This document shows, in pieces, positions 40,450 through 64,000 of a stretch of 64,000 bases of DNA (the first letter of the stretch is position 1; the number at the start of each line of letters is the position of its first letter). Origin of the DNA: Escherichia coli (GTDB taxonomy: Bacteria; Pseudomonadota; Gammaproteobacteria; Enterobacterales; Enterobacteriaceae); the NCBI RefSeq assembly GCF_050920415.1, contig NZ_CP169309.1; one strand, written 5' to 3'. The position numbers were made by a program, and so were the translations under genes. The notes beneath the pieces were generated by a model, which searched no databases, had not been told where the DNA came from, and saw only the letters and a list, made by a program, of their open reading frames with translations.

Positions 40450-40692
40450 ATGGCAGAGATTATTCCCATGACTGAAGAACAGAAGTTCAAGTTAGAAATT
40501 TACCGACTGCTATCTAAGAACAATTCAGCGGCAGAGGAAGCTTTTGCATTCATTGGTGCTGACCAACTGAAACTGGAATTGTTCAAGTTGCACTACAACG
40601 ATGGCGGTGCAAATCCAGACTTCACATCTCGCACTATCGAAGCGGTGCGTAAATCGAAGGAAGCGTTAGACCTGTTCACTACCGGAGCATAA
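40450..40692 (+). CDS. hypothetical protein upstream of terminase, 80 aa
   Basis: ORF with plausible start. Confidence 0.45.
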   Translation: MAEIIPMTEEQKFKLEIYRLLSKNNSAAEEAFAFIGADQLKLELFKLHYNDGGANPDFTSRTIEAVRKSKEALDLFTTGA

Positions 40693-40771
40693 ACATGGCA
40701 ACTCAAGGTTTCGACAACCCATCCAAATTCCGCGATGAATGGGATAAGCAAGCAGAAGGGAAATAATCAAT

Positions 40772-41260
40772 ATGGCAGCACCAAAGGGCAACCGATTTTG
40801 GGAGGCCCGCAGTAGTCATGGGCGAAATCCTAAATTCGAATCGCCTGAGGCGCTGTGGGCTGCTTGTTGTGAATACTTCGAGTGGGTGGAAGCTAACCCG
40901 CTATGGGAGATGAAGGCGTTCTCGTATCAGGGTGAAGTAATACAAGAGCCTATCGCCAAGATGCGAGCGATGACCATTACCGGCCTCACTCTGTTCATTG
41001 ATGTGACGCTTGAAACATGGCGCACATATCGCCTGCGAGAAGATTTATCTGAAGTCGTTACGCGAGCAGAACAGGTCATCTACGACCAGAAATTCTCTGG
41101 CGCAGCCGCTGACCTTCTCAACGCTAACATCATCGCCCGTGATTTGGGCCTCAAAGAGCAGTCGCAAGTTGAAGACGTGACACCTGATAAGGGAGATCGC
41201 GATAAGCGGCGCTCTCGTATCAAGGAGCTATTCAACCGTGGAACTGGACGCGATTCTTGA
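40772..41260 (+). CDS. terminase small subunit (P22 gp3 type)
   Basis: 162 aa, recognised as P22 gp3. Confidence 0.85.
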
Positions 41261-44903: not shown

Positions 44904-44916
44904 GAGAGAGTTAACC

Positions 44917-45828
44917 ATGGACCAAACCACCGACATTCAGGCTTCTGAAGAATTAACCCTGCCCGGCAATCATGCAGCGGCATCTGCTGATGGCTTAGTT
45001 GTCGATAATGCCAACGACAGCGCAGGTCAGGAAGAAGGCTTTGAGATTGTCCTGAAAGACGATGAGAAACCAAAACAAGACCCGGCAACTAATGCTGAAT
45101 TTGCCCGTCGCCGCATCGAACGCAAACGCCAGCGTGAGCTTGAGCAGCAGATGGAAGCGGTTAAGCGTGGAGAGTTGCCGGAGCACCTGCGGGTGAACCC
45201 TGAGTTACCAAAACAACCAGACCCTAACGATTATCTTTCCGAAGATGCACTGGCTAAGTACGACTATGACCAGAGCCGCGCACTGGCTGCCTTCCAGCAG
45301 GCAAACAGTGAATGGCAGATCAAGGCCATGGACGCACGAAGCCAGGCTGTCGCCGAGCAGGGTCGCAAAACTCAGGAGTTCACCCAGCAATCAGCGCAAT
45401 ACGTCGAGGCAGCCCGTAAGCACTACGACGCAGCGGAAAAGCTCAATATCCCTGACTATCAGGAGAAAGAGGATGCATTCATGCAACTGGTGCCGCCAGC
45501 AGTCGGTGCCGACATCATGCGCCTCTTCCCGGAGAAATCCGCTGCTCTCATGTATCACCTTGGTGCTAATCCTGAGAAAACACGCCAGTTACTGGCGATG
45601 GACGGGCAATCCGCGCTGATTGAACTCACTCGACTGTCAGAACGTTTAACTCTCAAGCCTCGAGCCAAGTCTGTTTCAGAAGCCCCGTTACCTGATGAAC
45701 CCATTCAGGGACACGCTGTTGCTGCAAATATCTCTGCGATTGAAAAGCAGATGGAAGCGGCAGCAAACAAAGGTGATGTAGAGACGTACCGCAAGCTTAA
45801 GGCGCAACTGAATAAAGGAATTCGATAA
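44917..45828 (+). CDS. scaffolding protein (P22 gp8 type)
   Basis: 303 aa, recognised as P22 scaffold. Confidence 0.85.
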
Positions 45829-47123
45829 TGGCATTAAATGAAGGTCAACTGGTCACATATGCTCTGGATGAAATCATCGAAACCGTCCAGAACCTGACGC
45901 CAATGGCGTCCAAAGTGACAAAATACACCCCTCCGGCAGAATCCATGCAACGTTCAAGCAACACCGTGTGGATGCCTGTTGAGCAGGAAGCGCCAACTCA
46001 GACAGGCTGGGATTTAACTGGCAACGCAACCGGGATTCTGGAACTCTCCGTGAAATGCAACATGGGCGATCCGGATAACGATTTCTTCGAGCTTCGTGCA
46101 GATGACCTGCGTGATGAGCGTTCTTACCGTCGCCGCATCCAGGCATCCGCCAAAAAACTGGCGAATAACATTGAGTCAGCAATTGCCAAACAGGCAACCG
46201 AAATGGGCTCACTTGTTGTTCACGATACCCGCGCAATTGGTCCATCTACTGGCCTGTCTGGCTGGGATTTTGTGTCTGATGCAGAGCGCCTGATGTTCTC
46301 CCGTGAGCTAAACCGCGATATGGGCATCAGTTACTTCCTGAACCCTGACGATTACCGCAAAGCAGGCCGCAACCTGGTAGATGGTGACATCTTTGGGCGC
46401 GTTCCTGAAGAAGCGTATCGTAACGGTACTATTCAGCGTCAGATTGCTGGCTTTGATGAAATTCTTCGCTCACCGAAACTTCCGGCAGTTACCAAGTCAA
46501 CCGCTACTGGTGTAACTGTTTCTGGTGCGCAGAAGTTTAAGCCGCAGGCATACACCCTTGATACCGATGGTAACAAAGAGAACGTCGACAACCGTGTTGC
46601 AACGGTGACCGTATCCTCCACCACCGGATTTAAGCGCGGCGACAAAATCAGCTTCACTGGTGTGAAATTCCTATCTCAGATGGCGAAGAACGTGCTGACT
46701 GATGATGCTACTTTCTCAATCACCCGAGTGATCGATAGTACTCACATCGAAATCACGCCGAAGCCGATTGCGCTGGATGACTCGTCACTGACAAAAGAAG
46801 AGAAGGCTTACGCTAACGTAAACACCTCTCTTGCTGATGCCACTCCGGTAAACGTTCTGAACGTGGCAACAACCACCGCTAACGTGTTCTGGGCTGATGA
46901 CTCAATCCGCCTGCTGTCTCAGCCGATTCCGGTAACCCATGAACTGTTTGCTGGCATGAAAACTTCTTCCTTCAGCATTCCAGGTATTGGTGTTAACGGC
47001 ATCTTCGCAACGCAGGGTGATATCAACACTCTGTCTGGCAAGTGCCGTATTGCTGTGTGGTATTCAGCATGTGCTGTACGACCAGAGGCAATTGGTGTTG
47101 GTCTGCCTAACCAGACTGCGTGA
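45828..47123 (+). CDS. major coat protein (P22 gp5 type)
   Basis: 431 aa, recognised as P22 coat. Confidence 0.9.
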
Positions 47124-47130
47124 TAACCAG

Positions 47131-47154
47131 AGGGAGCTTCGGCTCCCTTTTTTA
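47131..47154 (+). terminator. intrinsic terminator after coat gene
   Basis: AGGGAGC-TTCG-GCTCCCT hairpin followed by TTTTTT. Confidence 0.6.
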
Positions 47155-47167
47155 TCTGGAGACAAGC

Positions 47168-47405
<238 letters not shown>

Positions 47406-47428
<23 letters not shown>

Positions 47429-47906
47429 TTTAGTTCTTGCGGCATTACGTAAGCTCGGTGTGGCATCAAATGCCACGTTAACCGATGTCGAACCGCAGTC
47501 TATGGAAGACGGCGTCAACGACCTTGAAATGATGATGGCTGAATGGCTTGGCGGTGATGTGTCACCTGGTATCAACGTTGGCTACATTTTCGCTGATGCA
47601 GATGTCGCTCCAGATCCGGGCGATGAGCACGGTTTATCAAATAACGCTATCAATGCTGTCATTTTCAACCTTGCCTGCCGCATTGCACCGGATTATGCGC
47701 TGGAAGCGCCTGCAAAACTTATAACCACTGCCAGATACGGGAAAGAGCGACTCGTCAAACTGTCTGCAATGGACAGAGCAAAAGCCGCTAAATGTAAGTC
47801 CGGTTATCCAAACCGTATGCCTGTTGGTAGCGGTAACCAGTTGGCGAAGTGGAACGGTTGGAATTACTTCCACCGAAAGGAACCTTGCGATAACGGGAGC
47901 GAATAA
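47406..47906 (+). CDS. tail accessory / head completion protein (P22 gp4 type)
   Basis: From [33 protein letters not shown], matching P22 gp4; the ORF-track upstream extension is repeat-derived. Confidence 0.75.
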
Positions 47907-49324
47907 TGCCGATTCAGCAACTTCCGCTCATGAAAGGTGTCGGCAAAGATTTCCGAAACGCCGACTATATCGACTATCTGCCAGTGAATATGTTGGCTAC
48001 ACCCAAAGAAATCCTCAACAGCAGCGGATATCTTCGCTCATTCCCGGGCATTGCCAAACGCTCTGATGTGAATGGTGTATCGCGCGGTGTCGAGTACAAC
48101 ATGGCGCAGAATGCTGTTTATCGCGTTTGCGGTGGCAAGCTGTACAAAGGAGAAAGTGAAGTCGGTGACGTTGACGGAAGTGGTCGTGTATCAATGGCGC
48201 ATGGTCGGACATCACAGGCGATAGGCGTTAATGGTCAACTGGTCGAGTATCGCTATGATGGCACGGTTAAAACCGTCTCAAACTGGCCTACAGACAGCGG
48301 ATTCACACAGTACGAGTTAGGTTCAGTTCGCGACATTACGCGCTTACGTGGGCGTTATGCGTGGTCAAAAGACGGAACTGATTCATGGTTTATCACTGAC
48401 CCTGAAGACGAATCGCACCCTGACCGATACAGTGCACAATATCGCGCAGAATCGCAGCCGGACGGCATCATCGGTATCGGGACATGGCGAGACTTCATCG
48501 TCTGCTTTGGTTCTTCGACGATTGAGTATTTTTCCCTGACTGGTGCAACCACCGTTGGTTCTGCTTTGTATGTCGCCCAGCCATCGCTGATGGTGCAGAA
48601 AGGCATTGCCGGGACTTACTGCAAAACGCCATTCGCTGATTCTTATGCGTTTATCAGCAATCCGGCAACAGGTGCGCCGTCTGTGTATATCATTGGCTCC
48701 GGTCAGGTGTCACCAATCGCCAGCGCGAGCATTGAGAAAATTCTCCGCTCCTACACTGCTGATGAACTGGCTGATGGTGTGATGGAGTCTCTGCGATTTG
48801 ATGCGCATGAGCTGCTGATTATCCATCTTCCGCGCCATGTTCTGGTGTACGACGCATCTTCAAGCGCCAATGGTCCGCAATGGTGTGTGCTGAAAACAGG
48901 CCTGTATGACGATGTGTACCGCGCTATCGACTTCATTTACGAAGGCAATCAGATAACGTGCGGCGATAAGCTGGAATCCGTGACCGGGAAATTGCAGTTC
49001 GATATCAGCAGTCAGTACGACAAGCAACAGGAACACCTGCTGTTTACTCCTTTGTTCAAAGCAGATAACGCCAGAGTTTTCGACCTTGAAGTTGAATCTT
49101 CAACTGGCGTTGCGCAGTACGCCGACCGCCTGTTCCTCTCTGCAACCACTGACGGCATAAATTACGGTCGTGAGCAGATGATTGAGCAGAATGAACCGTT
49201 CGTTTACGACAAACGCGTTTTGTGGAAGCGTGTCGGGCGCATCAGGAAAAATGTCGGCTTCAAATTGCGCGTTATCACGAAGTCACCTGTAACTCTGTCT
49301 GGCGCTCAGATAAGGATTGAGTAA
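47906..49324 (+). CDS. tail accessory protein (P22 gp10 type)
   Basis: 472 aa, recognised as P22 gp10. Confidence 0.85.
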
Positions 49325-50172
49325 TGGCGGATTCGAATCTCAATGTGCCGGTAATCATCCAGGCTACGCGGCTCGATACATCAGTCCTTCCACGCAATAT
49401 CTTCTCGCAGTCGTATCTGCTGTACGTTATCGCGCAAGGTACTGATGTTGGTAACGTGGCTAACAAGGCCAACGAGGCCGGACAGGGCGCTTATGATGCA
49501 CAGGTCAGGAACGATGAGCAGGATGTGATTCTCGCTGACCATGAGCAGCGAATTTCTGCTGCGGAAGCAACGCTTGTTAATCATGAGGAGCGAATCAGCC
49601 AGGCAGAATCAACTCTTCAGGAACATGAAACGCGAATCGCTCAGAATGAAAGCGATATTGCGTCGCTTGATACCAGAGTTCAGTCGCTGGAATCGCAGGT
49701 TTCAGATCATGAATCGCGCATTGATGCTCTGGATTATGCAACCACGCGCAAGAAGTCAGAGGTTGTTTACTCTGGCGTATCAGTAACCATTCCGACAGCG
49801 CCGACCAACCTTGTTAGCCTACTGAAAACGCTCACGCCGTCATCCGGCTCGTTGACACCATTCTTCGACACCGTTAACAACAAGATGGTTGTGTTCAACG
49901 AGAACAAAACCTTGTTCTTCAAGCTGTCGATCGTCGGGACGTGGCCCAGCGGAACCGCCAACAGGTCAATGCAACTAAGCTTTTCCGGCTCTGTTCCTGA
50001 CACACTGGTAAGCAGTCGCAACTCGGCGACAACAACCGATAACATCCTGTTAGCTACGTTCTTCAGCGTGGATAAAGACGGCTTTCTTGCCACAAATGGC
50101 AGTACGTTAACCATTCAGTCAAATGGTGCGGCGTTTACTGCCACAACCATCAAAATCATTGCGGAGCAGTGA
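49324..50172 (+). CDS. tail needle (P22 gp26 type, Sf6-like long form)
   Basis: 282 aa; conserved gp26 N-terminus, heptad repeats, divergent C-terminal domain. Confidence 0.8.
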
Positions 50173-50627
50173 TGATTCAGTTCAAACCAACGCGAAACAT
50201 CGACTTGATCGAAGCAGTCGGAAATCACCCTGACATTATTGCCGGGAGCAACAACGGTGATGGATACGACTACAAACCTGATTGCCGTTACTTTGAGGTG
50301 AACGTGCACGGGCAGTTCGGCGGCATTGTTTACTATCAGGAGATTCAGCCGCTGACATTCGATTGCCACGCCATGTACCTGCCAGAGATTCGCGGCTTCA
50401 GCAAGGAAATTGGGCTGGCGTTCTGGCGATACATTCTGACTAACACCACCGTCCAGTGTGTCACATCGTTCGCCGCACGCAAATTCCGCCACGGTCAGAT
50501 GTACTGCGCAATGATTGGCCTTAAGCGTGTAGGAACCATCAAGAAATACTTCAAAGGCGTGGATGACGTGACTTTTTACAGCGCCACACGCGAAGAACTA
50601 ATCGACTTCCTGAATCACGGGAGATAG
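50169..50627 (+). CDS. virion protein at the P22 gp14 position
   Basis: 152 aa; assignment by synteny only. Confidence 0.5.
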
Positions 50628-50629
50628 CC

Positions 50630-51322
50630 ATGTTATATGCATTTAAGCTGGGCAGAAAACTGCGCGGCGAGGAACCTTATTGCCCTGAAAAAGGCGGGAA
50701 AGGTGGCAGCTCTGATAAAAGCGCAAAGTATGCAGCAGAAGCTCAGAAGTATGCTGCAGATCTGCAAAATCAGCAGTGGCAGACGATCATGAAAAACCTT
50801 GCTCCGTTCACGCCTCTTGCGGAGCAGTATGTTAACCAGCTTCAGAACCTTTCCAGTTTAGAAGGTCAGGGGCAGGCACTTAATCAGTATTACAACTCTC
50901 AGCAGTATAAAGACCTTGCAGGTCAGGCTCGTTACCAGAGTCTTGCTGCTGCGGAGGCTACGGGAGGACTTGGTTCGACAGCCACAAGCAATCAACTGGC
51001 TACGATCGCGCCTACACTCGGTCAGTCTTGGTTATCAAACCAGATGAGCAATTACAACAATCTGGCAAACGTTGGGCTTGGTGCGCTGCAAGGTCAGGCA
51101 AACGCCGGGCAGACGTACGCCAACAACATGAGCAGCATTGCACAGCAAAGCGCAGCACTTGCCGCTGCTAATGCCAATAAACCATCAAGTCTTCAGACTG
51201 CAATTAGCGGTGGCACGTCTGGTGCGATTGCCGGTGCAGGTCTTGCCAGCCTTTTGGGAACATCAACGCCTTGGGGCGCTGGCATTGGTGCTGGTATCGG
51301 ATTGCTTGGCTCGTTGTTTTAA
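50630..51322 (+). CDS. ejection protein (P22 gp7 type)
   Basis: 230 aa; N-terminus MLYAF.LGRKLRGEEP; synteny. Confidence 0.65.
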   Translation: MLYAFKLGRKLRGEEPYCPEKGGKGGSSDKSAKYAAEAQKYAADLQNQQWQTIMKNLAPFTPLAEQYVNQLQNLSSLEGQGQALNQYYNSQQYKDLAGQARYQSLAAAEATGGLGSTATSNQLATIAPTLGQSWLSNQMSNYNNLANVGLGALQGQANAGQTYANNMSSIAQQSAALAAANANKPSSLQTAISGGTSGAIAGAGLASLLGTSTPWGAGIGAGIGLLGSLF

Positions 51323-51331
51323 GGGGTAATC

Positions 51332-52738
51332 ATGGCTACTTGGCAAGGAACAAACGGCGGATTGTTGGCTGGTATCGGCGGCGTCAACTCAAACGCTCCG
51401 AGCGTAAATGACATCGGCAATACGCTTCAGCTTATCAGGCAGAACAATGATATTGAGCGTTCAGGCGCTAACAATGTTGGGCTGACTGCTTTGCAAGGCC
51501 TTTCAGGTATTGCGGGGGTGTTTCAGCAGGAAAAGCAGGCTCAGCGGCAGAAAGAATTTCAGCAGGCATACGCTAATGCTTATGCGTCTGGTGATCGCGG
51601 TGCTTTGCGTCAGTTGGCTACTCAATATCCAGACCAGATTGAATCCGTTCGTAAAGGCATGGGATTCATTGATGAAGACCAGCGTAATTCTATCGGCACC
51701 TTAGCGGCTGGCGCTCGCCTTGCGGCATCGTCTCCAGAAGCGATGCAATCATGGCTGCAAAACAACGCCAAGGAACTGACTCGCGTAGGTGTTGACCCTA
51801 ACAACGTTGCTCAGATGTATCAGCAGAATCCTTCAGGATTTGGTGAGTTTGTTGATCACCTTGGGATGGCTGCTCTTGGTCCGATTGATTACTTCAATGT
51901 TCAGGACAAGATGGCTGGTCGTGAAATTGACCGAGGCAGGCTGGCAGAGACAATCCGCAGCAATCAGGCTGGCGAGGCACTTCAGGCGAGAGGGCAAAAC
52001 CTTTCCTATCAGTCAGCAATGACTGGACACAATATCGCAGCGCAACGCTTGGCTCTGGATCAGCAAGAGTTCGGGTTTAAGATGCAGCAAGCGCAGGAAA
52101 AGGCTCAGCAGTTGATTAGCGAAGCACCTAAGCTGTCAGTAAACATGGAAAAAGGCATCGAGACGGCTGTAAACAATGCCACAGCATCATCAAACTCAGC
52201 CAATTCCATGAGTGCGCTTGCTCAACAGTTCAGAGCAGAAAAACCAACGACAGGTTTGTTCGGTAACGCACAGAACATGTTCGCAAAACTTACCGGAAGC
52301 GATACGACATTGCGTGATTTGCGCATTCGCCAAAATGCCCTTGTTAACAGTCAGGTTCTTAAATTCCTACCTCCCGGCCCAGCAACGGATAAAGACGTTG
52401 AGATCGTTCGACAGGGTGCGCCAACTGACATGGATAACCCTGAGACGGTCGCAAGATGGCTTGATGCAATGGCAAACCTTGAGCGACGAAACGCGCAGTT
52501 TAATGAGTTTAAAGCCGAGTGGATGAGCGCGAATGGCAACCCTGGACAATCGCGTAATGGCGGTCAGATATTGGGGTTGGATGTTAAAAAAGGTGAATCA
52601 TTGGGGAGTGCCGTTAAGCGGTATATGTCAATGAATACTGACGCAGCGCCAGCACAAGATTCGACACCTTCAGGAGAACCACGGAATCAGGTTGGATCAT
52701 ATACCTCAAAATCAGGCATTCAATTTACGGTGGAATGA
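51332..52738 (+). CDS. ejection protein (P22 gp20 type)
   Basis: 468 aa; synteny and size. Confidence 0.65.
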   Translation: MATWQGTNGGLLAGIGGVNSNAPSVNDIGNTLQLIRQNNDIERSGANNVGLTALQGLSGIAGVFQQEKQAQRQKEFQQAYANAYASGDRGALRQLATQYPDQIESVRKGMGFIDEDQRNSIGTLAAGARLAASSPEAMQSWLQNNAKELTRVGVDPNNVAQMYQQNPSGFGEFVDHLGMAALGPIDYFNVQDKMAGREIDRGRLAETIRSNQAGEALQARGQNLSYQSAMTGHNIAAQRLALDQQEFGFKMQQAQEKAQQLISEAPKLSVNMEKGIETAVNNATASSNSANSMSALAQQFRAEKPTTGLFGNAQNMFAKLTGSDTTLRDLRIRQNALVNSQVLKFLPPGPATDKDVEIVRQGAPTDMDNPETVARWLDAMANLERRNAQFNEFKAEWMSANGNPGQSRNGGQILGLDVKKGESLGSAVKRYMSMNTDAAPAQDSTPSGEPRNQVGSYTSKSGIQFTVE

Positions 52739-54741
52739 TGAAAGTAACTGCAAACGGTAAGACATTTACCTTCCCTGATGGTACGAGCACGGAAGATATT
52801 GGCACCGCCATTGATGAGTATTTTGCTGGTCAGTCAGCACCAACACAACAAGGTGTTCAGCAATCGCCAGCAGACAACTCACTTGCATCAGGATATGCAC
52901 AGCTTGCCACTCAGCAGAAGGAAGGACTAGATCGCTCTGCTGAGCAAGGGGCTGTTTTAGGTGCTGCAATGCGCGATGCCGTTACCGGTGAAAGCCGAAT
53001 GACACCAGAAATGGAGAGACTGCAAAATGTTGGGTCTGCTCCAGAGCTTAATAGCTTAAGCACTGATGCGCTGCGTGCTGGATTGGGGCAGCTATTTGGT
53101 TCCGACGCTTCACAGGAGAAAATACTGCAAAGTATTGGCGGGAAAATCCGGAAGGATGAGAAGGGAAATTCCATAGTCACCCTTCCTTCAGGGGAATATG
53201 CACTTAACAAGCCTGGTTTGTCACCGCAGGATATAACGTCATTCTTGGCAAATGCTCTTGCATTCACTCCAGCAGGTAGAGCTGCGTCTGTTGTAGGTGC
53301 AACACTAAAATCAGGCGCTACTGATTTAGCTTTACAGGGTGCCACTAAGATCGCTGGCGGTGAGAATGTTAATCCAGTTCAAACTGCAATTTCTGCTGGT
53401 CTTGGTGGGGTACTGAAGGGTGTAGAAAACACCGCAAGCGCAGTGTCTCGTTCTGCTATGGGTAAGATTGCTCCTGAAAAACAAGCTCAGATTGACTTTG
53501 CCAAGCAGAACAACTTGCCACTGATGACAACAGATCTTGTGGAACCGGGAACAAATATTGGTAAGCAAGCACGAGCTATGGCTGAGCGAATCCCAATAGC
53601 CGGAACAGGTGGGATAAGAAATGCACAGCAAAAGGCCAGGGAAGATTTAGTTAGAACTTTTAGCGATAATGTTGGTGGAATATCTGACGCACAACTTTAC
53701 CAATCAGCTACTCGTGGTCAGCAGCAATTTATTCAGGCTGCTGGCAAGCGGTACGACAGGATCATCAGTTTGATGGGGGATACTCCTGTTGACATCACTG
53801 GAACAGTGAAAGCAATTGATGAGCAGATTTCCAAGTTAACTCGCCCAGGAGTATCGCAAGATCGCTCAGCTGTTTCTGTCCTTCAACAGTTTAGAAATGA
53901 CATCACCAGCGGTCCAAATAACCTGCAATTAGCTAGAGAAAACCGTACAAACTTACGTAAGCGCTTTATGGCAGCACCTGACGAGGTCGATAGAGATACG
54001 CTGGAGAAAGCTGCGCAGTCTGTTTATAACGCATACACAACAGACATGAAAAAAGCGGTTGGCGCAAAACTAGGTGCGAAGGAAGCGCAAAACATGTCGC
54101 GTGTTGATCGTTCTTGGGCAAAGTTCAACGACATGATGAGCAATACACGTGTCCAAAAAGCTATTCAGAGTGGTAAAACAACGCCAGAAGATGTCACTAA
54201 ACTAGTATTCAGCCAAAGCCCAGCGGAAAGGGCGCAACTTTATCGATTGCTTGATGATAGTGGGCGTCAAAATGCTAGAGCAGCACTTGTTCAGCGTGCA
54301 ATGGATAAGGCGACAAGCGATTCAGGAAAGCTTAGCGTTGAGAAGTTTATTAATGAAATGAAAAGGAATCGGAAGCAGGCTGAGACGTTCTTCAGAGGAG
54401 AGCATGGGAAACAGCTTGATGGGATAATGAAATATCTTGATTCCACTAGACAGGCAGCTACTGCTGCCGCAAGCCCACTAACAGGGCAAATGGTAGCTGG
54501 TCCAGCAGCGCTGATAACAGCTCTTGCGTCTGTTACAAATCCAATGTTTGCAAAAGTTGCGGCAGTTGGAGCTGGTATCGGTATGGCTGGCAGGGGCTAT
54601 GAGTCACGCGCGATGAGGAACGCATTACTAAAGTTAGCAAACACGCCAAAAGGAAGTACTGCTTATGATAGAGCGATCAGACGGGTATCTGAAACTCTTA
54701 CACCTCTAATTCAGGCTTCAAGTGAGAAAGCCCAGCAGTAA
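52735..54741 (+). CDS. ejection protein (P22 gp16 type)
   Basis: 668 aa; synteny and size. Confidence 0.65.
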   Translation: MMKVTANGKTFTFPDGTSTEDIGTAIDEYFAGQSAPTQQGVQQSPADNSLASGYAQLATQQKEGLDRSAEQGAVLGAAMRDAVTGESRMTPEMERLQNVGSAPELNSLSTDALRAGLGQLFGSDASQEKILQSIGGKIRKDEKGNSIVTLPSGEYALNKPGLSPQDITSFLANALAFTPAGRAASVVGATLKSGATDLALQGATKIAGGENVNPVQTAISAGLGGVLKGVENTASAVSRSAMGKIAPEKQAQIDFAKQNNLPLMTTDLVEPGTNIGKQARAMAERIPIAGTGGIRNAQQKAREDLVRTFSDNVGGISDAQLYQSATRGQQQFIQAAGKRYDRIISLMGDTPVDITGTVKAIDEQISKLTRPGVSQDRSAVSVLQQFRNDITSGPNNLQLARENRTNLRKRFMAAPDEVDRDTLEKAAQSVYNAYTTDMKKAVGAKLGAKEAQNMSRVDRSWAKFNDMMSNTRVQKAIQSGKTTPEDVTKLVFSQSPAERAQLYRLLDDSGRQNARAALVQRAMDKATSDSGKLSVEKFINEMKRNRKQAETFFRGEHGKQLDGIMKYLDSTRQAATAAASPLTGQMVAGPAALITALASVTNPMFAKVAAVGAGIGMAGRGYESRAMRNALLKLANTPKGSTAYDRAIRRVSETLTPLIQASSEKAQQ

Positions 54742-54749
54742 AAAGTTGG

Positions 54750-55070
54750 TTAGCGGTTGATGGTTGCTTTTTTCGGGTCATACCATCTCGGCCATTCTTT
54801 CAGGAATGGGAATGAGTCGGGAGCGTGGTTCTTTTTGTACGATTTAAGCAGCCTTAACCGCTCTATCGCACACTCATAAACCTCTTGTTGCCCTGTAGTC
54901 ATCTCGGTCCATGAAAGGTGATCCATTGATAAGACAACGTTTTCAGCTTCTTTTATGAGGGCGTTTTTATTTCTCACCGCAGCAGCATGGCTGACAGAGC
55001 AATCCTGCCATATTCTTAAAAGCCAAATAGCTAAGCAGATAAAAAAAATGGTAGATAGCGATATATACAC
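54750..55070 (-). CDS. small membrane protein, N-terminal TM helix (GTG start after AAGGAGG)
   Basis: 106 aa from GTG at 55070 with strong SD 5 nt upstream; the longer ORF to 55286 overlaps the divergent gene. Confidence 0.4.
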   Translation of the reverse strand: MYISLSTIFFICLAIWLLRIWQDCSVSHAAAVRNKNALIKEAENVVLSMDHLSWTEMTTGQQEVYECAIERLRLLKSYKKNHAPDSFPFLKEWPRWYDPKKATINR

Positions 55071-55100
55071 ACCAACCTCCTTAGTTTTGAGCAGGATACC

Positions 55101-55466
55101 ATGAAAAAAGTTAACATTGGAAACGTACCAAAGATGCTCGTACCGCTCTTTGAGAGCGGTACAATTGTGTTTTGTAGAGACTTTCCAGAATGGCAACGCC
55201 TGCATCAAAAACTTGGCGTTGACGTGCATGACTCGGACGCCAACGGAGCGTCTCATACAATGAGTAGCGAGAATGGTGTTTTGCATGTGATAGGCGTGTT
55301 CAATGGCAAACTATCTACTATTGCCCATGAGTGCGCTCACATGGCATTCGATATCTGCTCAAGGGTAGGTGTTGATGTTGAACCAGGAAGAGCCAACGAG
55401 ACTTACTGCTACTTAATGAGCAGGCTTGTTGAGTTCTGCGAGCGACATATCAAAAAGCCGGAGTGA
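55101..55466 (+). CDS. small protein with HExxH motif (HECAH), candidate minimal zinc metallopeptidase
   Basis: 121 aa; motif read from translation; divergent from the membrane-protein gene. Confidence 0.45.
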   Translation: MKKVNIGNVPKMLVPLFESGTIVFCRDFPEWQRLHQKLGVDVHDSDANGASHTMSSENGVLHVIGVFNGKLSTIAHECAHMAFDICSRVGVDVEPGRANETYCYLMSRLVEFCERHIKKPE

Positions 55467-55479
55467 CCCGGCTTGATTA

Positions 55480-55660
55480 TTACTTTTTGCTGTCTGGAGT
55501 TCGCTTATCCAATACCCAGCCATGACCTGGCTTTGTTGTTGGTGGAAGCCTTTCGTTGTCCTTGACGGTGGCAAAATTGTCTTTCTTACCGCCGCGTGGG
55601 CCAACTTCTTGGTATATTCCGCCGTTTTTTCCTGTGTTTTCACCTGGTTTTTTCGCCATG
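55480..55660 (-). CDS. small hydrophilic protein, 60 aa
   Basis: ATG with GAGG-like SD; MAKKPGENTGKNGGIYQEVGPRGGKK. Confidence 0.35.
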
Positions 55661-55758
55661 ATATACCTCAACATACACCCGTTATTGGGCGATTAAATAT
55701 TGATCTCATTTTATAAGTAGTCAATATGGCCCAGGTAAATGCAAAAATTAACTCACCG

Positions 55759-56010
55759 TCAGGTGGTTTTTTTGTACAAATCCTTCAGCGTATCAAACAC
55801 CATCTTCTTAACAAGATCTGACTGCTCATCAGCGAGTCGTTCTGCATCGTCACGATATCCAGTCACAGGCGATGGTTTTGATAGAGCATCTTGGACGATT
55901 TGCAACAATTCTGAGTTCATTGATCTACCATTTGACTCTGCTCTGTATTTTAATTTTTCTCTTACTTCCAAAGGCATGCGGAAGTTAAAGTGCGGATCGT
56001 CTCTAGCCAT
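55759..56010 (-). CDS. mnt: Mnt repressor (ribbon-helix-helix)
   Basis: 83 aa, near-identical to remembered P22 Mnt. Confidence 0.85.
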   Translation of the reverse strand: MARDDPHFNFRMPLEVREKLKYRAESNGRSMNSELLQIVQDALSKPSPVTGYRDDAERLADEQSDLVKKMVFDTLKDLYKKTT

Positions 56011-56033
56011 GCCATCACTCCAAGTTAGTATCT

Positions 56034-56297
56034 TTAACTTTCGTCTTTATTGTTGCCATACATGCATTTCAACTTCTCAACATCATGTTCAAGATCTATC
56101 AATCGTGATGCTATAGTTGCAAGGTCTAGTGCTTGAATGTGTTTATTTTTTTCGGTCCATGCTTCAAGTGCCGCGACCATCTCAGCATTTAATGAACGAG
56201 AATTAGCCTCAGCCAGTTCAATAAGACGTTCCTTTATCTCTACAGGAAGCCTCAGATTCACTTGAGGGTTTTTGTACTTACGATCAGACATCGGCAC
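56034..56297 (-). CDS. ribbon-helix-helix protein (Arc/MetJ-like) upstream of mnt
   Basis: N-terminal VNLRLPVEIKERLIELAEANSRSLNAEMVAALEAW RHH pattern. Confidence 0.5.
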   Translation of the reverse strand: MPMSDRKYKNPQVNLRLPVEIKERLIELAEANSRSLNAEMVAALEAWTEKNKHIQALDLATIASRLIDLEHDVEKLKCMYGNNKDES

Positions 56298-56396
56298 ATC
56301 CTGAATAATTTTTTACCACAGGATATGTAGGTATCTATTGACTATCAATGCGTACCTAAATACTATGTATGCGTACCACATACAACGGAGGATGCA

Positions 56397-56537
56397 ATGA
56401 AGGTAAAAACACTGCGTATGCCAGAGAAGTTAGAAAAAATCCTTGAAGAGAAAGCAAAGGAAGAGTGTCGCTCATTTAGCGCAGAAGTAATTAAACGGGT
56501 GATGGACAGCCTGAAGAGAGATGGGGTGGCGATATGA
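56397..56537 (+). CDS. Arc-like ribbon-helix-helix repressor
   Basis: 46-aa ORF with GGAGG SD; divergent from mnt; upstream of the ant-position gene. Confidence 0.55.
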   Translation: MKVKTLRMPEKLEKILEEKAKEECRSFSAEVIKRVMDSLKRDGVAI

Positions 56538-57439
56538 ATAAAGAAGATGGCTTTAAGTGCTCCTTCTGCTGAAAGCCTCAGCATGAATGTGCAATGTTGA
56601 TTCGCGCTAAAGCAGAGATATTTATCTGTAATGGTTGTGTATCTCTTTGCGTTGAAGCGATGGGGAAAGAGTTAAATTCTAGAAAAACAATGTTAGATGT
56701 GAGCATAAAACAGTGAAGCCCCAACTGCGGTAACAGTCAGGGCTTCGGTATCAACAAAACTTACGAGGTATTATTGATATGTCAAGCTTAGCAAAGTCAA
56801 CTGTAAATTGCACTAATAGCATCATCATTTCTGACGTCAAGATTCATATGGATTCAGAGGGTCGTTACTCGCTTAATGACCTTCATGTAGCGTCTGGAAA
56901 GGAGGAAAAACATCAGCCAGCTTTCTTCATGCGTAGAAATGAAACTATTGAATTGATTAATGAAATTTTTAATTCTGCGGATATGCAGAATAAGAATCCC
57001 GTCATTTCTAAGAAAGGTAGATATGGTGGAACATACGTGTGCAAGGAGCTTGTTTACTCCTACGCCATGTGGATTAGCGCAGCATTTGCGCTGAAGGTTA
57101 TCCGCGCATATGACGCAATGGTTACTGCCACACAAGAGAGGAAGGCTATTGGCGGTAAAACTTCAGTAGCTGAACGCACGCCGCTACGCGATGCAGTAAA
57201 CATGCTGGTAGGAAAGAAAGGACTTCGCTATGACGATGCATACAATATGGTTCATCAGCGTTTTGGTATTGACAGCATTGATGAACTTTCAATTGAACAA
57301 ATCCCGCTGGCCGTAGAGTACATCCACAGGGTAGTGCTTGAAGGTGAGTAGACTGGCCCCCTGAATCTCCAGACAACCAGTATCACTTAAATAAGTGATA
57401 GTCTTAATACTAGTTTTTAGACTAGTCATTGGAGAACAG

Positions 57440-57805
57440 ATGATTGATGTCTTAGGGCCGGAGAAACGCAGACGGCGTACCACACAGGAAAAGATCGCAA
57501 TTGTTCAGCAGAGCTTTGAACCGGGGATGACGGTCTCCCTCGTTGCCCGGCAACATGGTGTAGCAGCCAGCCAGTTATTTCTCTGGCGTAAGCAATACCA
57601 GGAAGGAAGTCTTACTGCTGTCGCCGCCGGAGAACAGGTTGTTCCTGCCTCTGAACTTGCTGCCGCCATGAAGCAGATTAAAGAACTCCAGCGCCTGCTC
57701 GGCAAGAAAACGATGGAAAATGAACTCCTCAAAGAAGCCGTTGAATATGGACGGGCAAAAAAGTGGATAGCGCACGCGCCCTTATTGCCCGGGGATGGGG
57801 AGTAA
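57440..57805 (+). CDS. insC: IS2 transposase OrfA
   Basis: [26 protein letters not shown] recognised. Confidence 0.9.
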
Positions 57806-58668
57806 GCTTAGTCAGCCGTTGTCTCCGGGTGTCGCGTGCGCAGTTGCACGTCATTCTCAGACGAACCGATGACTGGATGGATGGCCGCCGCAGTCGTCAC
57901 ACTGATGATACGGATGTGCTTCTCCGTATACACCATGTTATCGGAGAGCTGCCCACGTATGGTTATCGTCGGGTATGGGCGCTGCTTCGCAGACAGGCAG
58001 AACTTGATGGTATGCCTGCGATCAATGCCAAACGTGTTTACCGGATCATGCGCCAGAATGCGCTGTTGCTTGAGCGAAAACCTGCTGTACCGCCATCGAA
58101 ACGGGCACATACAGGCAGAGTGGCCGTGAAAGAAAGCAATCAGCGATGGTGCTCTGACGGGTTCGAGTTCTGCTGTGATAACGGAGAGAGACTGCGTGTC
58201 ACGTTCGCGCTGGACTGCTGTGATCGTGAGGCACTGCACTGGGCGGTGACTACTGGCGGCTTCAACAGTGAAACAGTACAGGACGTCATGCTGGGAGCGG
58301 TGGAACGCCGCTTCGGCGACGATCTTCCGTCGTCTCCAGTGGAGTGGCTGACGGATAATGGTTCATGCTACCGGGCTAATGAAACACGCCAGTTCGCCCG
58401 GATGTTGGGACTTGAACCGAAGAACACGGCGGTGCGGAGTCCGGAGAGTAACGGAATAGCAGAGAGCTTCGTGAAAACGATAAAGCGTGACTACATCAGT
58501 ATCATGCCCAAACCAGACGGGTTAACGGCAGCAAAGAACCTTGCAGAGGCGTTCGAGCATTATAACGAATGGCATCCGCATAGTGCGCTGGGTTATCGCT
58601 CGCCACGGGAATATCTGCGGCAGCGGGCTTGTAATGGGTTAAGTGATAACAGATGTCTGGAAATATAG
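57763..58668 (+). CDS. insD: IS2 transposase OrfB (DDE domain)
   Basis: 301 aa recognised as IS2 InsD. Confidence 0.9.
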
Positions 58669-59105
58669 GGGCAAATCCAGTGAGTTCATTGGCAAACAAG
58701 AGAAGAAAACCAACGAGCTTTCTGCAAAAGAAGCAAACAGCCTTGTATGGTTATGGGATTATGCCAACCGCTCACAGGCATTATTCCGCGAATTGTATCC
58801 GGCATTAAAACAAATTCAATCGAACTATTCCGGCAGATGTCATGACTGCGGTTATGAGTTCTCCCGTATTATCGATATAGCGAGAGACGTTTTAATTAAT
58901 CACACACGAGATGTTGATATCAATGAGCCAGACGGACCAACGAATCTTTCCGCATGGATGAGACTTAAGAATAAAGAATTACCTCCTTCAGTACATAATT
59001 ACTGACAGATAACCAACGCAACGACCCAGCTTCGGCTGGGTTTTTTTATGCCCAAAATTCACCGTAGCCATGCTGCGGCGATTCCTTGTATCTGGAGCAA
59101 ATTAA

Positions 59106-61063
59106 ATGACAGACATTACAGCCAATGTTGTAGTGAGCATGCCTTCGCAACTCTTTACTATGGCCCGCTCTTTTAAAGCCGTAGCTAATGGTAAAATTTA
59201 TATCGGTAAAATTGACACTGACCCGGTAAATCCTGAAAACCAGATTCAGGTTTATGTAGAGAACGAAGACGGCTCTCACGTTCCTGTTTCGCAACCAATC
59301 ATCATTAACGCTGCTGGATATCCGGTATATAACGGACAGATTGCCAAATTCGTAACTGTGCAAGGCCATTCTATGGCTGTATATGATGCGTATGGTGCAC
59401 AGCAGTTCTATTTTCCTAATGTGCTGAAGTATGACCCTGATCAGTTTAAGCAGCAGTTAGAAAGCGATGCTGATGGAATGGGAGATGCATTAGTTACAGT
59501 TAAACAACCGTACACTGGTGCTACTTCTATTTCACAGCACATTAAAAATTCACAGGCTATAAGTGTTATTGATTTTGGCGCTACAATTGACGGAACGCTT
59601 CACCCTTTAAGCGAGATATTTTCAACACTATCAGCCGCTCAGATGGTATATCCATTTGTTTCATCTCTATCTCAATCTGTTGATTATGCTGCGCTTCAGT
59701 CCGCATGTAACACGGGAAAAACAGTGCTTATTCCAAAGGGAACTGGTTACTATAATTCAACTATTTTTCTGAAAAACTCCGTCAGGATTGTTGGAGAGGG
59801 AACTGATACAATAAATAGAGCGCAATCATTTATGTCTATTGTTGGTAATATTTCAGCCTTTGCTTTAGATCAAGGTGATTCACTATCGACAAAAATGATT
59901 CAGATTTTTATTGATGGTCTTTATATTTTCTATGATCCAGGAACCACACCAACGAATCCTGAAGATGATGGTGGGAAAATTGCATTTAATTTCTACTCGA
60001 CAATTCCAAATTCAACAAGCTTGGAAATGTCTGAAATTAAAAACTGTACAGTTCATGGTGCATGGTCATGCTTTAATGATCAGACTGGCACATACTTGAC
60101 AAAACTTACGAATGTGTGGGCCAGAAACTGCCATAATGGTTTTACAAAAGGAACTGGCACTACCATTCTGATGGAAAGATGTTATACATCTGGATGTATA
60201 TCACCATATCAGTTTGGTTCTGTCTTTGCAGCTACAATGATTAACTGTGCCATGGATGGATCAAATATTTCGTTAAACGCAGGTTCGCTTGGTGGGGCTG
60301 GCGTTCATGTTCTTAACACACATAGTTTTAACATTATTGGTTTTGATGCGGAGGGTAACACCATCTCTACAGATGGTTATGGAGAGGCAGCACTATTCCA
60401 TTTCGAAAATAGTAGTGGTGGCATTTCTGGCCTGACTGCACATCAGAACAGCATGCGAAGTGTTGCGCCAAGTGATGCTGGTGTAGTTTCCTACATCAGG
60501 GCGTCAGGTAGCAGCGATGTAAAATTGAGTCATCAGAAGATGATTTATCTGACACCAACACAGTTGCATATACTGGGTCTGGGTATCCCATCATGCTACA
60601 TGCAACTGACACAGCTAAAATAAGCGTCTTTAATAGCAGATTCAGGGCGACTACCACTGGTACCCCTGTCTTAAGTACGCTAAGTACTGGTGATGTATCA
60701 TGGTATGACTGCCCTAAAAAAACAGGACTTATCGTAGATGGTTATTCACAAATAACATCTAAGGAAGGATTGCAAACATCATGCTTCTATACCAGTAAAG
60801 GCTCTACTGCTGTTGCTGAAAATACTCCGACAACACTTTTCTCTCTACCAGATTCGCAAGGTACTTACATTATTAGCGTATGGGGGGCTGGAAGCGGAGA
60901 AAATTACGCATCTACACAACTGGCAATGTATGATGGAGATAAGCTAATTCTTGTTGCGTTAAAAATAGCAGCATTTCTTAGTTTTTCAGCAACAGGGAGA
61001 ATTGTAACCATTACAAGCCAGGGCACAGGCACTTTTAATTGGACCTACACAAAAATAGGTTAA
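59106..61063 (+). pseudogene. tailspike (P22 gp9-type head-binding N-terminus) split into two overlapping ORFs, 59106-60623 and 60593-61063; apparent frameshift
   Basis: N-terminus [34 protein letters not shown] matches P22 tailspike head-binding domain; second frame is open from 60512 with no SD-preceded start. Confidence 0.6.
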
Positions 61064-62400: not shown

Positions 62401-62520
62401 TTTTTACCCGTCATGGTGTGCGGCTGTCAACGATCTGACGCGAACCATGACGAACTGTGAATCTACGGAAGGCTTGATATTCAGGGGATTTTGCGGACTG
62501 GTACGGATGGGAGCGAACTG

Positions 62521-62540
62521 ATAAATGGTGTCCCCTGCAG
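62521..62540. repeat. prophage att core, integrase/argW-proximal copy
   Basis: Exact repeat of 22364-22383. Confidence 0.8.
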
Positions 62541-62600
62541 GAATCGAACCTGCAATTAGCCCTTAGGAGGGGCTCGTTATATCCATTTAACTAAGAGGAC
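62526..62600 (-). tRNA. argW: tRNA-Arg (argW)
   Basis: Reverse strand reads GTCCTCTTAGTTAAATGGATATAACGAGCCCCTCCTAAGGGCTAATTGCAGGTTCGATTCCTGCAGGGGACACCA, 75 nt with T-arm and CCA end. Confidence 0.9.
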
Positions 62601-62675
62601 AATGCGGCATGAGTATACCCGCTAATGCTCAGCGGGGTAAGTACACTGCCGCTCGATTGCTTAAACCCTCGCCAT

Positions 62676-63608
62676 TTATGCCGGGTTTTTATCATTTTTC
62701 TTAATGTTTTCCGCACGTTCTGCTTTTTGTCGTGCTTCTGCTTTGCGCTTGTTGCTCATGTCGTTACGGATCTGTGCATGACTCATTAACGCGAATATAA
62801 AGGTGCCGCCGCAGATGTTTCCTGCCAGAGTAGGCAGCGCGAAGGGCCAGATGAAATCGCTCCAGTGCAGCGTGCCGTTAAATACCAGATAGAGGATTTC
62901 TACAGAACCGACAACGATGTGGGTGGTGTCTCCGAGGGCGATAAGCCAGGTCATTAATATAATCACTACAATCTTTGCCGCACCCGCTGCAGGAAACATC
63001 CATACCATAGTGGCGATCAGCCAGCCGGAAATGATCGCGTTGGCAAACATCTCACTGGGGGTGTTCTTCATCACATCCATGCCGATTTTTACAAATGCAT
63101 CGCGAGTTTCTTCATTAAAGATAGGCATATATTCAAATGCCCACGCCGCAATACCTGTCCCGAGAATATTCCCCAGCAGCACGACGCCCCATAACCGCAT
63201 AAGTAAGCCGACGTTGCTCATTGTCGGTTTTTGCATGACGGGTAGTACCGCAGTCACGGTGTTTTCGGTAAATAATTGCTGGCGGGCCATAATGACGATA
63301 ATAAAGCCAAAGGTATAACCGAGATTCTCCAGCAAGAAACTGCCCGGCACGCCTTCCAGTTCGACATGAAATATCCCTTTTGCCAGTAGTGAAGCGCCCA
63401 TCGACAGACCCGCCGCAATGGCTGACCACAGTAGCGCCATTGCGTCGCGTTCCAGCTCTTTTTCACCATCCTGGCGGATATGTTCATGAATTGCCATCGC
63501 CCGGGAGGGGAGTCGGTCTTCATCTATTTCTATTTTTTTGCCGCGTTCTTTTTCTTCGCTCTCAACTTCAATTTCGTCGCTGTGTTGATCAATTTTGTCG
63601 TTGTCCAT
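62676..63608 (-). CDS. yfdC: formate/nitrite transporter family inner-membrane protein YfdC
   Basis: 310 aa polytopic membrane protein; synteny next to argW. Confidence 0.8.
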   Translation of the reverse strand: MDNDKIDQHSDEIEVESEEKERGKKIEIDEDRLPSRAMAIHEHIRQDGEKELERDAMALLWSAIAAGLSMGASLLAKGIFHVELEGVPGSFLLENLGYTFGFIIVIMARQQLFTENTVTAVLPVMQKPTMSNVGLLMRLWGVVLLGNILGTGIAAWAFEYMPIFNEETRDAFVKIGMDVMKNTPSEMFANAIISGWLIATMVWMFPAAGAAKIVVIILMTWLIALGDTTHIVVGSVEILYLVFNGTLHWSDFIWPFALPTLAGNICGGTFIFALMSHAQIRNDMSNKRKAEARQKAERAENIKKNDKNPA

Positions 63609-63902
63609 GGTCTCTTCTCTTGAATTAGCACGTATAGCTAAAGCGTAGCGGCTTTTTTGCTCGCAACTGGCGGGAGTTACTCTGAAAATGTAGAAAAGGC
63701 TGTGTTTGCCTTTTTCTGTTTCTATAGAATCAAGTAGCCTACAGGGCGTCGATTACCAGGCTATGATCAAATCAGCAAATCAGGGCGTCTGGACATCAGT
63801 TGACGTGCTGTTACAATCGCCCACACCTAAACAGGCGGATACGGTATCGTTCCGTCATGGATGGCAAACTGCATAAGCCATAAAAAAAACAGGGAGACAT
63901 TT

Positions 63903-64000
63903 ATGAAGCTTCGCCTGTCGGCGCTTGCTCTTGGAACTACGCTTCTGGTGGGGTGTGCGAGTTCCGGTACAGATCAGCAAGGGCGTTCTGACCCATTAGA
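63903..64000 (+). CDS. mlaA: MlaA (VacJ) lipoprotein, 5' fragment; continues past window end
   Basis: MKLRLSALALGTTLLVGCASSGTDQQGRSDP with lipobox LVGC; AGGGAGA SD. Confidence 0.8.
   Translation, partial: MKLRLSALALGTTLLVGCASSGTDQQGRSDPL

Follow-up and report, generated by a model that had tools for sequence, protein, structure and literature searches.

An IS2 insertion in the antirepressor gene of a P22-like prophage of Escherichia coli

The antirepressor gene ant of a P22-like prophage is split by a complete IS2 element in the 64,000-nucleotide stretch of Escherichia coli DNA analysed here (called the window). The insertion is private and recent, and its best explanation, to which we give a probability of about 85%, is a neutral IS2 hit in the accessory ant gene of a decaying prophage. 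The element and its borders comprise the following features:

57349-58679, + strand: IS2, 1331 bp, left inverted repeat (IRL) on the left, transposase genes read in the same direction as ant
57344-57348, strandless: left copy of the target-site duplication, GTGAG
58680-58684, strandless: right copy of the target-site duplication, GTGAG
57349-57390, + strand: IRL, which starts with 5'-TA and is 1 nt off the published IRL (PMC3219604)
57440-57805, + strand: orfA (TnpA/InsC), 121 aa, 276 bits against a cut-off of 229
57757-57763, + strand: A6G window of programmed -1 frameshifting, after which OrfAB is open and has 409 aa
57763-58668, + strand: orfB (TnpB/InsD), 301 aa, 725 bits against a cut-off of 597
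58639-58679, + strand: right inverted repeat (IRR), with a CA-3' end

A complete IS2 at 57349-58679, flanked by an intact 5-bp GTGAG duplication, had been reported in a preliminary description of this DNA, and both observations are correct. OrfA and OrfB are full-length when compared with the NCBIfam IS2 TnpA and TnpB models and exceed the curated cut-offs. A gapped alignment of both ends reveals imperfect terminal inverted repeats, and the left-end 30-mer occurs once in the window, versus 0.00 occurrences expected from shuffles. The 30-mers at the two junctions are GCTTGAAGGTGAG followed by TAGACTGGCCCC and GGCAAATCCA followed by GTGAGTTCATTGG. The repeat is exactly 5 bp long, since the sixth bp does not match, and two fixed positions would share 5 bp by chance with a probability of ~1/1024. 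Target duplications of 5 bp are typical of IS2 (ISfinder). The element resembles the IS2 (IS3 family) of E. coli in its length, its IRL (TA) and IRR (CA-3') termini, its orfA/orfB organization, its A6G -1 window and its 5-bp duplication, and no substantial difference was found, only 1 base in the IRL with respect to the published oligonucleotide. The A6G window, the OrfA/OrfB overlap and the terminal repeats also fit published features of IS2 (PMC3219604). As judged from its sequence, this IS2 is complete and apparently transposition-competent.

The interrupted gene is represented by two fragments:

56779-57348, + strand: 5' part of ant (codons 1-190), with a complete KilA-N domain and middle module
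58685-59005, + strand: 3' part of ant (codons 191-296), with the P22AR_C domain and the block that hardly varies among the variants of Ant

Removal of IS2 together with one GTGAG copy yields an open reading frame of 891 nt (296 aa), whereas the frame is broken if both copies are kept. The rebuilt gene is 97.1% identical at the nucleotide level to ant of phage Emek and up to 98.9% identical to the intact ant of 31 E. coli genomes, in both cases with no break at the site. At this position GTGAG, or a variant of it with 1 nt changed, is found once in the intact relatives, the alignment is gap-free across the insertion point, and the rebuilt 60-nt insertion site matches both P22 ant and ETEC1730 at 100% identity. 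The earlier proposal that the two halves derive from one gene of ~296 aa is thus confirmed, since the reading frame is restored and the halves are colinear with intact ant in Emek and in the 31 E. coli genomes. The closest known proteins, the Ant of Emek (vB_SemP_Emek, AFM54341.1) and its E. coli prophage orthologues (for instance, WP_186196785.1), which belong to PHROG 2812, share with the rebuilt product the combination of KilA-N and P22AR_C, the length of 296 aa, the position and 97-99% nucleotide identity. However, those genes are uninterrupted, while the copy in the window is split after codon 190.

In the rebuilt Ant, KilA-N (PF04383) spans residues 19-114 (E = 3.4e-19) and P22AR_C (P22_AR_C, PF10548) residues 196-268 (E = 2e-28). 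Over its C-terminal 170 aa, the rebuilt protein shares 84% identity with residues 131-300 of P22 Ant, but the N-terminus shows no similarity to residues 1-130 of P22 Ant and is not a P22AR N-terminal domain. From R184 onwards, the sequence is almost invariant in nine Ants spanning three N-terminal types. On these sequence comparisons, the ant of the window is a domain-shuffled member of the P22 Ant family in which KilA-N replaces P22_AR_N. A search of PDB sequences with Ant gave no meaningful match, and the structure predicted for the intact protein from a nine-sequence alignment (mean pLDDT 49, pTM 0.30) does not have the quality needed to search for folds or to place domain boundaries.

The 5' reading frame is halted directly by the first triplet of IS2, TAG (57349-57351). 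Termination at this stop after codon 190 would leave a product that keeps KilA-N and the middle module and loses the entire P22AR_C. Such a 190-aa protein could retain a function, in antirepression or otherwise, in which case the allele would not be null; KilA-N is intact, as is the middle module (residues 127-190), which shares 84% identity with its P22 Ant counterpart, the native promoter, ribosome-binding site and control by the sar RNA (see below) are still in place, and the PHROG families of other "anti-repressors" have no more than residues 1-216 or 112-190 in common with it. However, no block of the family is better conserved than the one removed by the insertion; it hardly varies between three different N-terminal architectures, which argues that it is needed. 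In addition, an exact-product look-up of the 190-aa truncated Ant found no record of a natural form of this length. Retention of function is therefore very improbable, and the ant::IS2 allele is most likely null for antirepression, a loss of Ant function that we infer from the truncation. A 120-aa ORF (58643-59005), which begins at a GTG in the right end of IS2 and runs in frame into the 3' part of ant, has no promoter or evident ribosome-binding site and was discarded as a chance ORF.

The genes that surround ant are organized as follows:

55759-56010, - strand: mnt homologue, 83 aa, 94% identical to P22 Mnt
56034-56291, - strand: second ribbon-helix-helix (RHH) gene, 85 aa, adjoining the promoter region
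56338-56366, + strand: candidate Pant promoter, TTGACT-17-TACTAT, a consensus match only
56397-56537, + strand: Arc-like RHH repressor gene, 46 aa, 36% identical to P22 Arc
56534-56716, + strand: small ORF for a ClpX-type C4 Zn finger, between arc and ant, inactivated by a GGA to TGA change at codon 13 (56570-56572)
56712-56777, - strand: sar antisense RNA gene (Rfam RF00262, 62.8 bits against a gathering score of 43)
59023-59042, + strand: hairpin and T run resembling an intrinsic terminator, downstream of ant and upstream of the tailspike gene, at a place equivalent to that of an annotated Emek terminator
59106-61063, + strand: tailspike gene, out of frame after the loss of 1 nt at ~60519/60520 and prematurely stopped at 60623

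The preliminary description had located the gene at the position of P22 ant, downstream of arc; it is a true homologue, and sar abuts its start codon (ATG at 56779) and overlaps its ribosome-binding region. The region shares with P22 immI (mnt, arc, sar, ant) the leftward RHH repressor gene or genes, the rightward arc-sar-ant order, the terminator and the tailspike gene. It differs in the Zn-finger ORF between arc and ant, in the second RHH gene between mnt and the promoter, in a main repressor that is lambda CI and not P22 C2, and in the lack of the P22 Mnt and Arc operators, for which no match was found in the whole window with up to 3 mismatches. Because of this lack, it cannot be directly asserted that Mnt represses this ant. 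An 18-nt imperfect inverted repeat (56324-56362) overlaps the candidate Pant, including its -35, and the second RHH gene is, by its position, the likely cognate maintenance repressor gene. Since the cognate operator and repressor of Pant differ from those of P22, silence of ant in the lysogen would be expected by analogy only.

The Zn-finger ORF, as well as two further lesions of the region, had been missed in the preliminary description. An assembly error might in principle account for the tailspike frameshift, but there are no indels in the ~24 kb in common with a clonal sister strain, described below. Exact-product look-ups of the 505-aa truncated tailspike and of an 87-aa GTG form of the RHH protein found no record.

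Transposon insertions in P22 ant are classical, the Tn1 "P22 Ap" phages being the example. A split ant gene, as well as tailspike genes disrupted by IS, also occur in other E. coli prophages. A candidate for a recurrent IS hit in ant, the signal from VE-T10/VE-T2, was rejected, since the IS3-family element sits there between ant and the tailspike gene and not within ant. The ant moron is a region of high flux, and ant is degraded in HK620 and Scho1 (PMC2629481), where, as in the window, a non-essential antirepressor has been lost or disrupted and the main immunity system kept (PMC2629481). In contrast to these phages and to the Tn1 cases, the agent in the window is IS2 and the event is recent enough for both halves of the gene and the duplication to be intact.

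The consequences of the loss of Ant depend on the immunity system of the prophage, whose relevant features are:

22363-62540, strandless: whole P22-like prophage at the tRNA-Arg(CCU) gene argW, 40,157 bp core to core, IS included
30019-30732, - strand: gene of the main immunity repressor, essentially lambda CI, with HTH_3 and a full Peptidase_S24
37328-37951: gene of a Q-like antiterminator

The 21-bp att cores lie at 22363-22383 and 62520-62540. The prophage is a unique mosaic, with no near-identical IS-free copy of the whole element available for comparison; no record of E. coli or of the phage collection covers at least 80% of the prophage segments 22300-47000 or 40000-57348.

It had been suggested that the loss of an antirepressor would stabilise lysogeny, and this loss might even have been selected as a host-driven domestication. 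When Ant is overexpressed, the main repressor is inactivated and lytic growth sets in (PMC11016777), and in Gifsy-type prophages antirepressors are the obligatory route of induction (PMC3121763). Furthermore, Pant is devoid of P22-type Mnt/Arc operators, so that the tightness of its repression is not a given, and removing Ant does close one derepression route. However, the main repressor of this prophage (518 bits to lambda CI, PDB 3BDN) has an intact S24 self-cleavage domain, which would permit SOS induction with no need for Ant. The Gifsy-type antirepressors GfoA and GfhA are LexA-controlled; like Ant, they are encoded outside the main immunity region, and they inactivate the repressor by binding (PMC3121763). 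Unlike lambda CI, the repressor in those prophages is non-cleavable, and the loss of the antirepressor would lock the prophage. A search for LexA boxes (CTGT-N8-ACAG, up to 1 mismatch) found none between 33.5 kb and the IS, thus none near ant, and the total number of matches in the window is below the chance expectation; SOS control of ant was discarded for want of such a box. Neither sar nor any of the RHH repressor genes is missing or damaged. In P22, immI is dispensable for the maintenance of lysogeny, and a deletion of mnt-ant lowers lysogeny establishment but leaves lysogen fitness and phage production unchanged (PMC11016777). Finally, two other lesions adjoin ant, one of them in an essential virion gene, which points to unselected decay, and the IS2 load of the host is expanded. 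With the cleavable repressor, the absence of a LexA box near ant and the dispensability of immI against it, the claim of stabilised lysogeny is not supported, and we consider it unlikely.

A variant of selection, in which a leaky Ant (given a Pant without P22-type operators and a knocked-out Zn-finger ORF) destabilised the prophage or cross-induced others, and loss of the invariant C-terminal module by way of the enlarged IS2 pool of the host was favoured, appears still less probable. If it were true, the selected loss of Ant would be a rapid step of host-driven domestication visible on a clonal timescale.

Insertions of IS2 are classically polar. The element in the window could thus block read-through from Pant/Plate into the tailspike gene and lower the supply of tailspike, and the flank indeed supplies no -10 to pair with the outward -35 in IRR: the hexamer at the required spacing, TGAGTT, is a poor -10, which led us to reject a hybrid outward promoter at the right end of IS2, and a promoter scan of the right junction found no promoter-like site on the + strand. 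However, a Q-like antiterminator is present, and the modified polymerase should, from what is known of lambda and P22 biology, pass terminators. Moreover, the tailspike gene is already frameshifted, and in the genome as it stands polarity would change nothing. We consider polarity improbable as the main consequence of the insertion.

The age and the origin of the insertion can be traced through a clonal sister strain, MFDS1022581, whose flanks are identical over 20,000 + 3,580 + 1,481 nt. In this strain the argW site is empty (attB) and the whole prophage is missing. Although IS2 copies at least 99% identical to that of the window occur in 2,846 records, the only record with a perfect match (1331/1331) is the MFDS1022581 chromosome, where the identical copy, annotated as "IS3-like element IS2 family transposase", interrupts a T3SS chaperone gene. 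The sister strain holds IS2 at 31 places (20 + 11), against a median of 4. The ant::IS2 junction is present in none of 5,426 complete E. coli genomes. The recency claimed in the preliminary description is upheld by these data, that is, by the junction, by the identity with the sister copy alone and by the absence of the prophage from the sister strain; the argument then given for it, the intact duplication, contributes little, because 5 bp would survive for a long time.

The multi-copy state of IS2 in this lineage also bears on the assembly, since repeats can be mis-joined and the element might have been misplaced by the assembler. However, both junctions are exact at the IS termini, and the 5 bp perfectly duplicated beside them are found only once at the site in all intact relatives. 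A mis-join would not yield such a structure, and an artefact of this kind is hardly credible.

The evidence is best accommodated by a neutral hit of IS2 in ant. A resident, transposition-competent IS2 from the expanded pool of the lineage would have entered the ant gene of the argW-integrated prophage by the copy-out/paste-in route of the IS3 family, with the usual 5-bp duplication as a result. Ant is an accessory protein, which would normally be kept repressed under the control of RHH repressors and the sar RNA, and lambda CI is inactivated by its own RecA-stimulated self-cleavage; because Ant is accessory and the main repressor self-cleaving, a small phenotype is expected from the loss of Ant. 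What would be lost is Ant-dependent derepression, namely the induction that follows a failure of the maintenance repressor and perhaps some cross-talk with further repressors, while SOS inducibility and the maintenance of lysogeny would be unaffected. The effect on the dormancy of the prophage is probably small. The insertion, the upstream nonsense mutation and the downstream tailspike frameshift are best read together as decay in an IS2-rich host, a decay that we take to be neutral.

An IS2 hit in a prophage ant gene is an ordinary event, and it opens no new question. For annotation, the fragments 56779-57351 and 58685-59005 should be joined into a single ant pseudogene that IS2 interrupts. 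With its tailspike gene frameshifted, the prophage probably cannot produce infectious particles and should be flagged accordingly. As a clean, datable case of early prophage decay, the locus may be useful for studies of IS-driven prophage inactivation, the sister strain having the attachment site in its empty state as well as the exact variant of the IS2 donor.

The ant gene, which codes for a P22-type antirepressor, is split by an IS2 copy of exactly 1331 bp. Reading of the sequence and a scripted rebuilding of the site agreed with all the coordinates of the preliminary description, and the rebuilt site and the NCBIfam matches bore out its identification of an IS2 with an intact 5-bp target duplication. 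The element and its borders are as follows:

57344-57348, left copy of the GTGAG target duplication, directly abutting IS2
57349-58679, IS2
57440-57805, OrfA, 121 aa, matched end to end by NCBIfam 'IS2 repressor TnpA' (276 bits; cut-off 229)
57763-58668, OrfB, 301 aa, matched end to end by NCBIfam 'IS2 transposase TnpB' (725 bits; cut-off 597)
58680-58684, right copy of the GTGAG target duplication, directly abutting IS2

The first bases of the element are TAGACTGGCCCCCTGAATCTCC and the last ones GGGGCAAATCCA. The direct repeat stops after 5 bp, the sixth base not matching, and the window contains the left-end 30-mer a single time (0.00 occurrences expected by chance). The termini are imperfect inverted repeats, IRL beginning with TA and IRR finishing with CA-3', as described for IS2 (PMC3219604); the window IRL differs in one base from the one published in that report. 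An A6G slippery window is present at 57757, where a -1 shift leads to a 409-aa OrfAB with zero internal stops. Judging from these elements, this IS2 looks active. IS2 is present in 4,853 of 5,426 complete E. coli genomes. The right end of IS2 carries an outward -35, for which the flank provides no matching -10 element. A 120-aa ORF (58643-59005, plus strand) has its GTG start within this right end and continues, without a change of frame, through the ant 3' fragment; it lacks both a promoter-like site and an obvious ribosome-binding site, and is probably due to chance.

Removal of IS2 and one GTGAG joins 56779-57348 to 58685-59005 in an open 891-nt frame (296 aa), while the frame is broken if both GTGAG copies are retained. 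The rebuilt ORF is colinear with intact genes along its full length, such as the ant gene of Salmonella phage vB_SemP_Emek (97.1%), and has a counterpart annotated as one gene in each of 31 complete E. coli genomes, that of LR-64-1 being the closest (98.9%). When intact loci were compared pairwise with the IS-less window by BLAST, the alignment crossed the junction uninterrupted, with zero gaps in the case of LR-64-1. A 60-nt stretch with the rebuilt site at its centre is found unchanged (100% identity) in P22 ant and in E. coli ETEC1730, each carrying a single GTGAG. These full-length colinear relatives and empty sites uphold the earlier proposal that both flanks come from one ancestral ant-type gene. 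An origin of the halves from different genes is excluded, since the rebuilt ORF is colinear with intact genes across the junction.

The rebuilt Ant contains two Pfam domains, KilA-N (residues 19-114) and the P22AR C-terminal domain (196-268). BLASTP detected 84% identity to P22 Ant in residues 127-296 (P22 131-300) and no match of the N-terminus to that protein. This combination of domains and a C-terminal-only match identifies it, at the sequence level, as a P22 Ant family member with shuffled domains. The whole protein is matched by PHROG 2812 and its C-terminal part by PHROGs annotated 'anti-repressor Ant'. Nine Ants representing three N-terminal architectures were aligned, and they show a nearly unvarying block that extends from about R184 to the C-terminus. 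IS2 is inserted after residue E190 and its first triplet, TAG, ends the ORF with zero residues added; therefore, essentially the whole of this block is removed. Loss of Ant function would be the natural inference. A PDB sequence search found no solved structure of an Ant homologue, and the AlphaFold model (pLDDT 49) is too poor to use. Residues ~184-296 (window 57330-59005) are near-invariant across Ants whose three N-terminal/middle architectures are unrelated, and this block looks like a conserved recombination 'linker' beside the equally conserved tailspike head-binding domain.

The setting of ant is that of the 'ant moron' of P22 immI (the mnt/arc/sar/ant region):

55759-56010, minus strand, Mnt homologue, 94% identical to P22 Mnt
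56034-56291, minus strand, second ribbon-helix-helix (RHH) gene, 85 aa, between mnt and the promoter
56397-56537, rightward, Arc-like gene
56534-56716, rightward, small ORF with a ClpX-type C4 Zn-finger, between arc and ant
56712-56777, minus strand, sar antisense RNA gene, above the Rfam gathering threshold
59023-59042, terminator-like hairpin between ant and the tailspike gene

The gene order is that of P22 plus two additional genes; the Zn-finger ORF between arc and ant is absent from P22. The sar gene stops 2 nt short of the ant ATG, and the 85-aa RHH gene is widespread (3,332 index blocks). The N-terminal DNA-contact strand of the Mnt homologue is conserved. P22 Mnt and Arc operators are absent from the whole 64-kb window, including the candidate ant promoter (Pant). 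An 18-nt inverted repeat (56324-56362), unlike the P22 operators, overlaps the candidate -35 of Pant. Judging only by its position, the 85-aa RHH protein presumably represses Pant in the lysogen. This 94%-identical Mnt, devoid of the P22 operator, is thus an 'orphan'; speculatively, its action might be confined to P22-type phages that superinfect the lysogen, on which it would act in trans.

Two further lesions are located less than 2 kb from IS2. Codon 13 of the Zn-finger ORF, which immediately precedes ant, is changed from GGA to TGA (56570-56572) with respect to LR-64-1, in which this ORF is intact and annotated (WP_047668240.1). The other one affects the tailspike gene:

59106-61063, tailspike gene, 1-nt deletion at ~60519/60520 (GATGTTAAAA to GATGTAAAA)

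Compared to its 97.7% identical counterpart in ETEC1730, a single 1,959-nt ORF, the window gene has lost one T, causing a frameshift and a stop at 60623. An assembly error is an unlikely cause of this deletion, since there are zero indels in the ~24 kb common to this assembly and that of MFDS1022581, a clonal sister strain. P22-like virions without tailspikes are not infectious, so that the tailspike lesion must postdate lysogenisation. As it stands, the prophage is probably unable to make infectious particles. The ant moron has been described as an unusually high-flux region, with ant degraded in HK620 and Scho1 (PMC2629481). Among other E. coli P22-like prophages, IS3-family elements are present within the tailspike gene in PEC422 (locus L006) and loci L012 and L015, and between ant and tailspike in VE-T10 (L007); in L012, ant is also divided into two ORFs. 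To judge from these loci, the ant-tailspike segment is a frequent decay site in such prophages.

It had been suggested that loss of the antirepressor would stabilise lysogeny. This is not supported by the nature of the main repressor:

30019-30732, minus strand, main repressor, HTH_3 plus a complete Peptidase_S24 domain

This protein shows three substitutions over 236 aligned residues with respect to PDB 3BDN (518 bits) and keeps the Ala-Gly cleavage site, Ser149 and Lys192, so by sequence it is essentially lambda CI. The lambda-immunity module lies within a P22-type (podovirus-type) morphogenetic background. Lambda CI is the classic example of a repressor whose self-cleavage is stimulated by RecA and, with such a cleavable repressor, Ant is not needed for SOS induction. 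Gifsy-type prophages, whose repressors are non-cleavable, can be induced only by way of LexA-controlled antirepressors (PMC3121763). In contrast, no LexA box is present anywhere near the window ant. P22 has been reported to need immI neither for lysis nor for lysogeny; with mnt-ant deleted, lysogeny was established less often, lysogen growth and phage production being unhindered (PMC11016777). Thus, the evidence argues mostly against a stabilising effect. The insertion would abolish Ant-dependent derepression, for instance upon failure of the maintenance repressor, as well as any cross-talk of Ant with other repressors. IS2 polarity onto the tailspike gene would make no practical difference here, since the prophage has a Q-like antiterminator and that gene is already broken.

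The insertion had also been considered recent. An intact 5-bp duplication is by itself weak evidence of recency, and the proposal is sustained by the absence of the junction elsewhere, an identical IS2 in the sister strain and its empty site. A 401-nt left-junction query reached at least 80% coverage in none of the 5,426 complete genomes. Host chromosome makes up the initial 20 kb of the window, and there MFDS1022581 is identical at 20,000 of 20,000 positions; this strain also shows 100% identity with window 18804-22383 and 62520-64000. Its argW site is empty, the csc genes, tRNA-Arg and yfdC being adjacent with nothing in between. The att core is single in MFDS1022581 (L003, 3560-3580) and duplicated in the window:

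22363-22383 and 62520-62540, 21-bp att cores (GATAAATGGTGTCCCCTGCAG), prophage ends at tRNA-Arg(CCU) argW

Therefore, the ~40.2-kb prophage is carried by one of two clonal-level relatives. Among 20,395 records, only the MFDS1022581 chromosome contains a perfect IS2 match (1331/1331; 2,459 bits), followed by its plasmid (one mismatch) and then by records with two mismatches. This identical copy (L018 1501-2831; NZ_CP169399.1 65794-67124) disrupts a CesD/SycD-type type III secretion chaperone gene. In MFDS1022581, IS2 occupies 20 places on the chromosome and 11 on plasmid DNA, versus a median of 4 per genome. In the simplest history, the prophage would already have been integrated when IS2 entered it from the expanded pool of copies that this lineage itself carries. 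The element is a known one, inserted in a member of a known dispensable gene family and in a region known for decay; the only special merit of the case is the clonal sister strain, which provides a very clean natural control.
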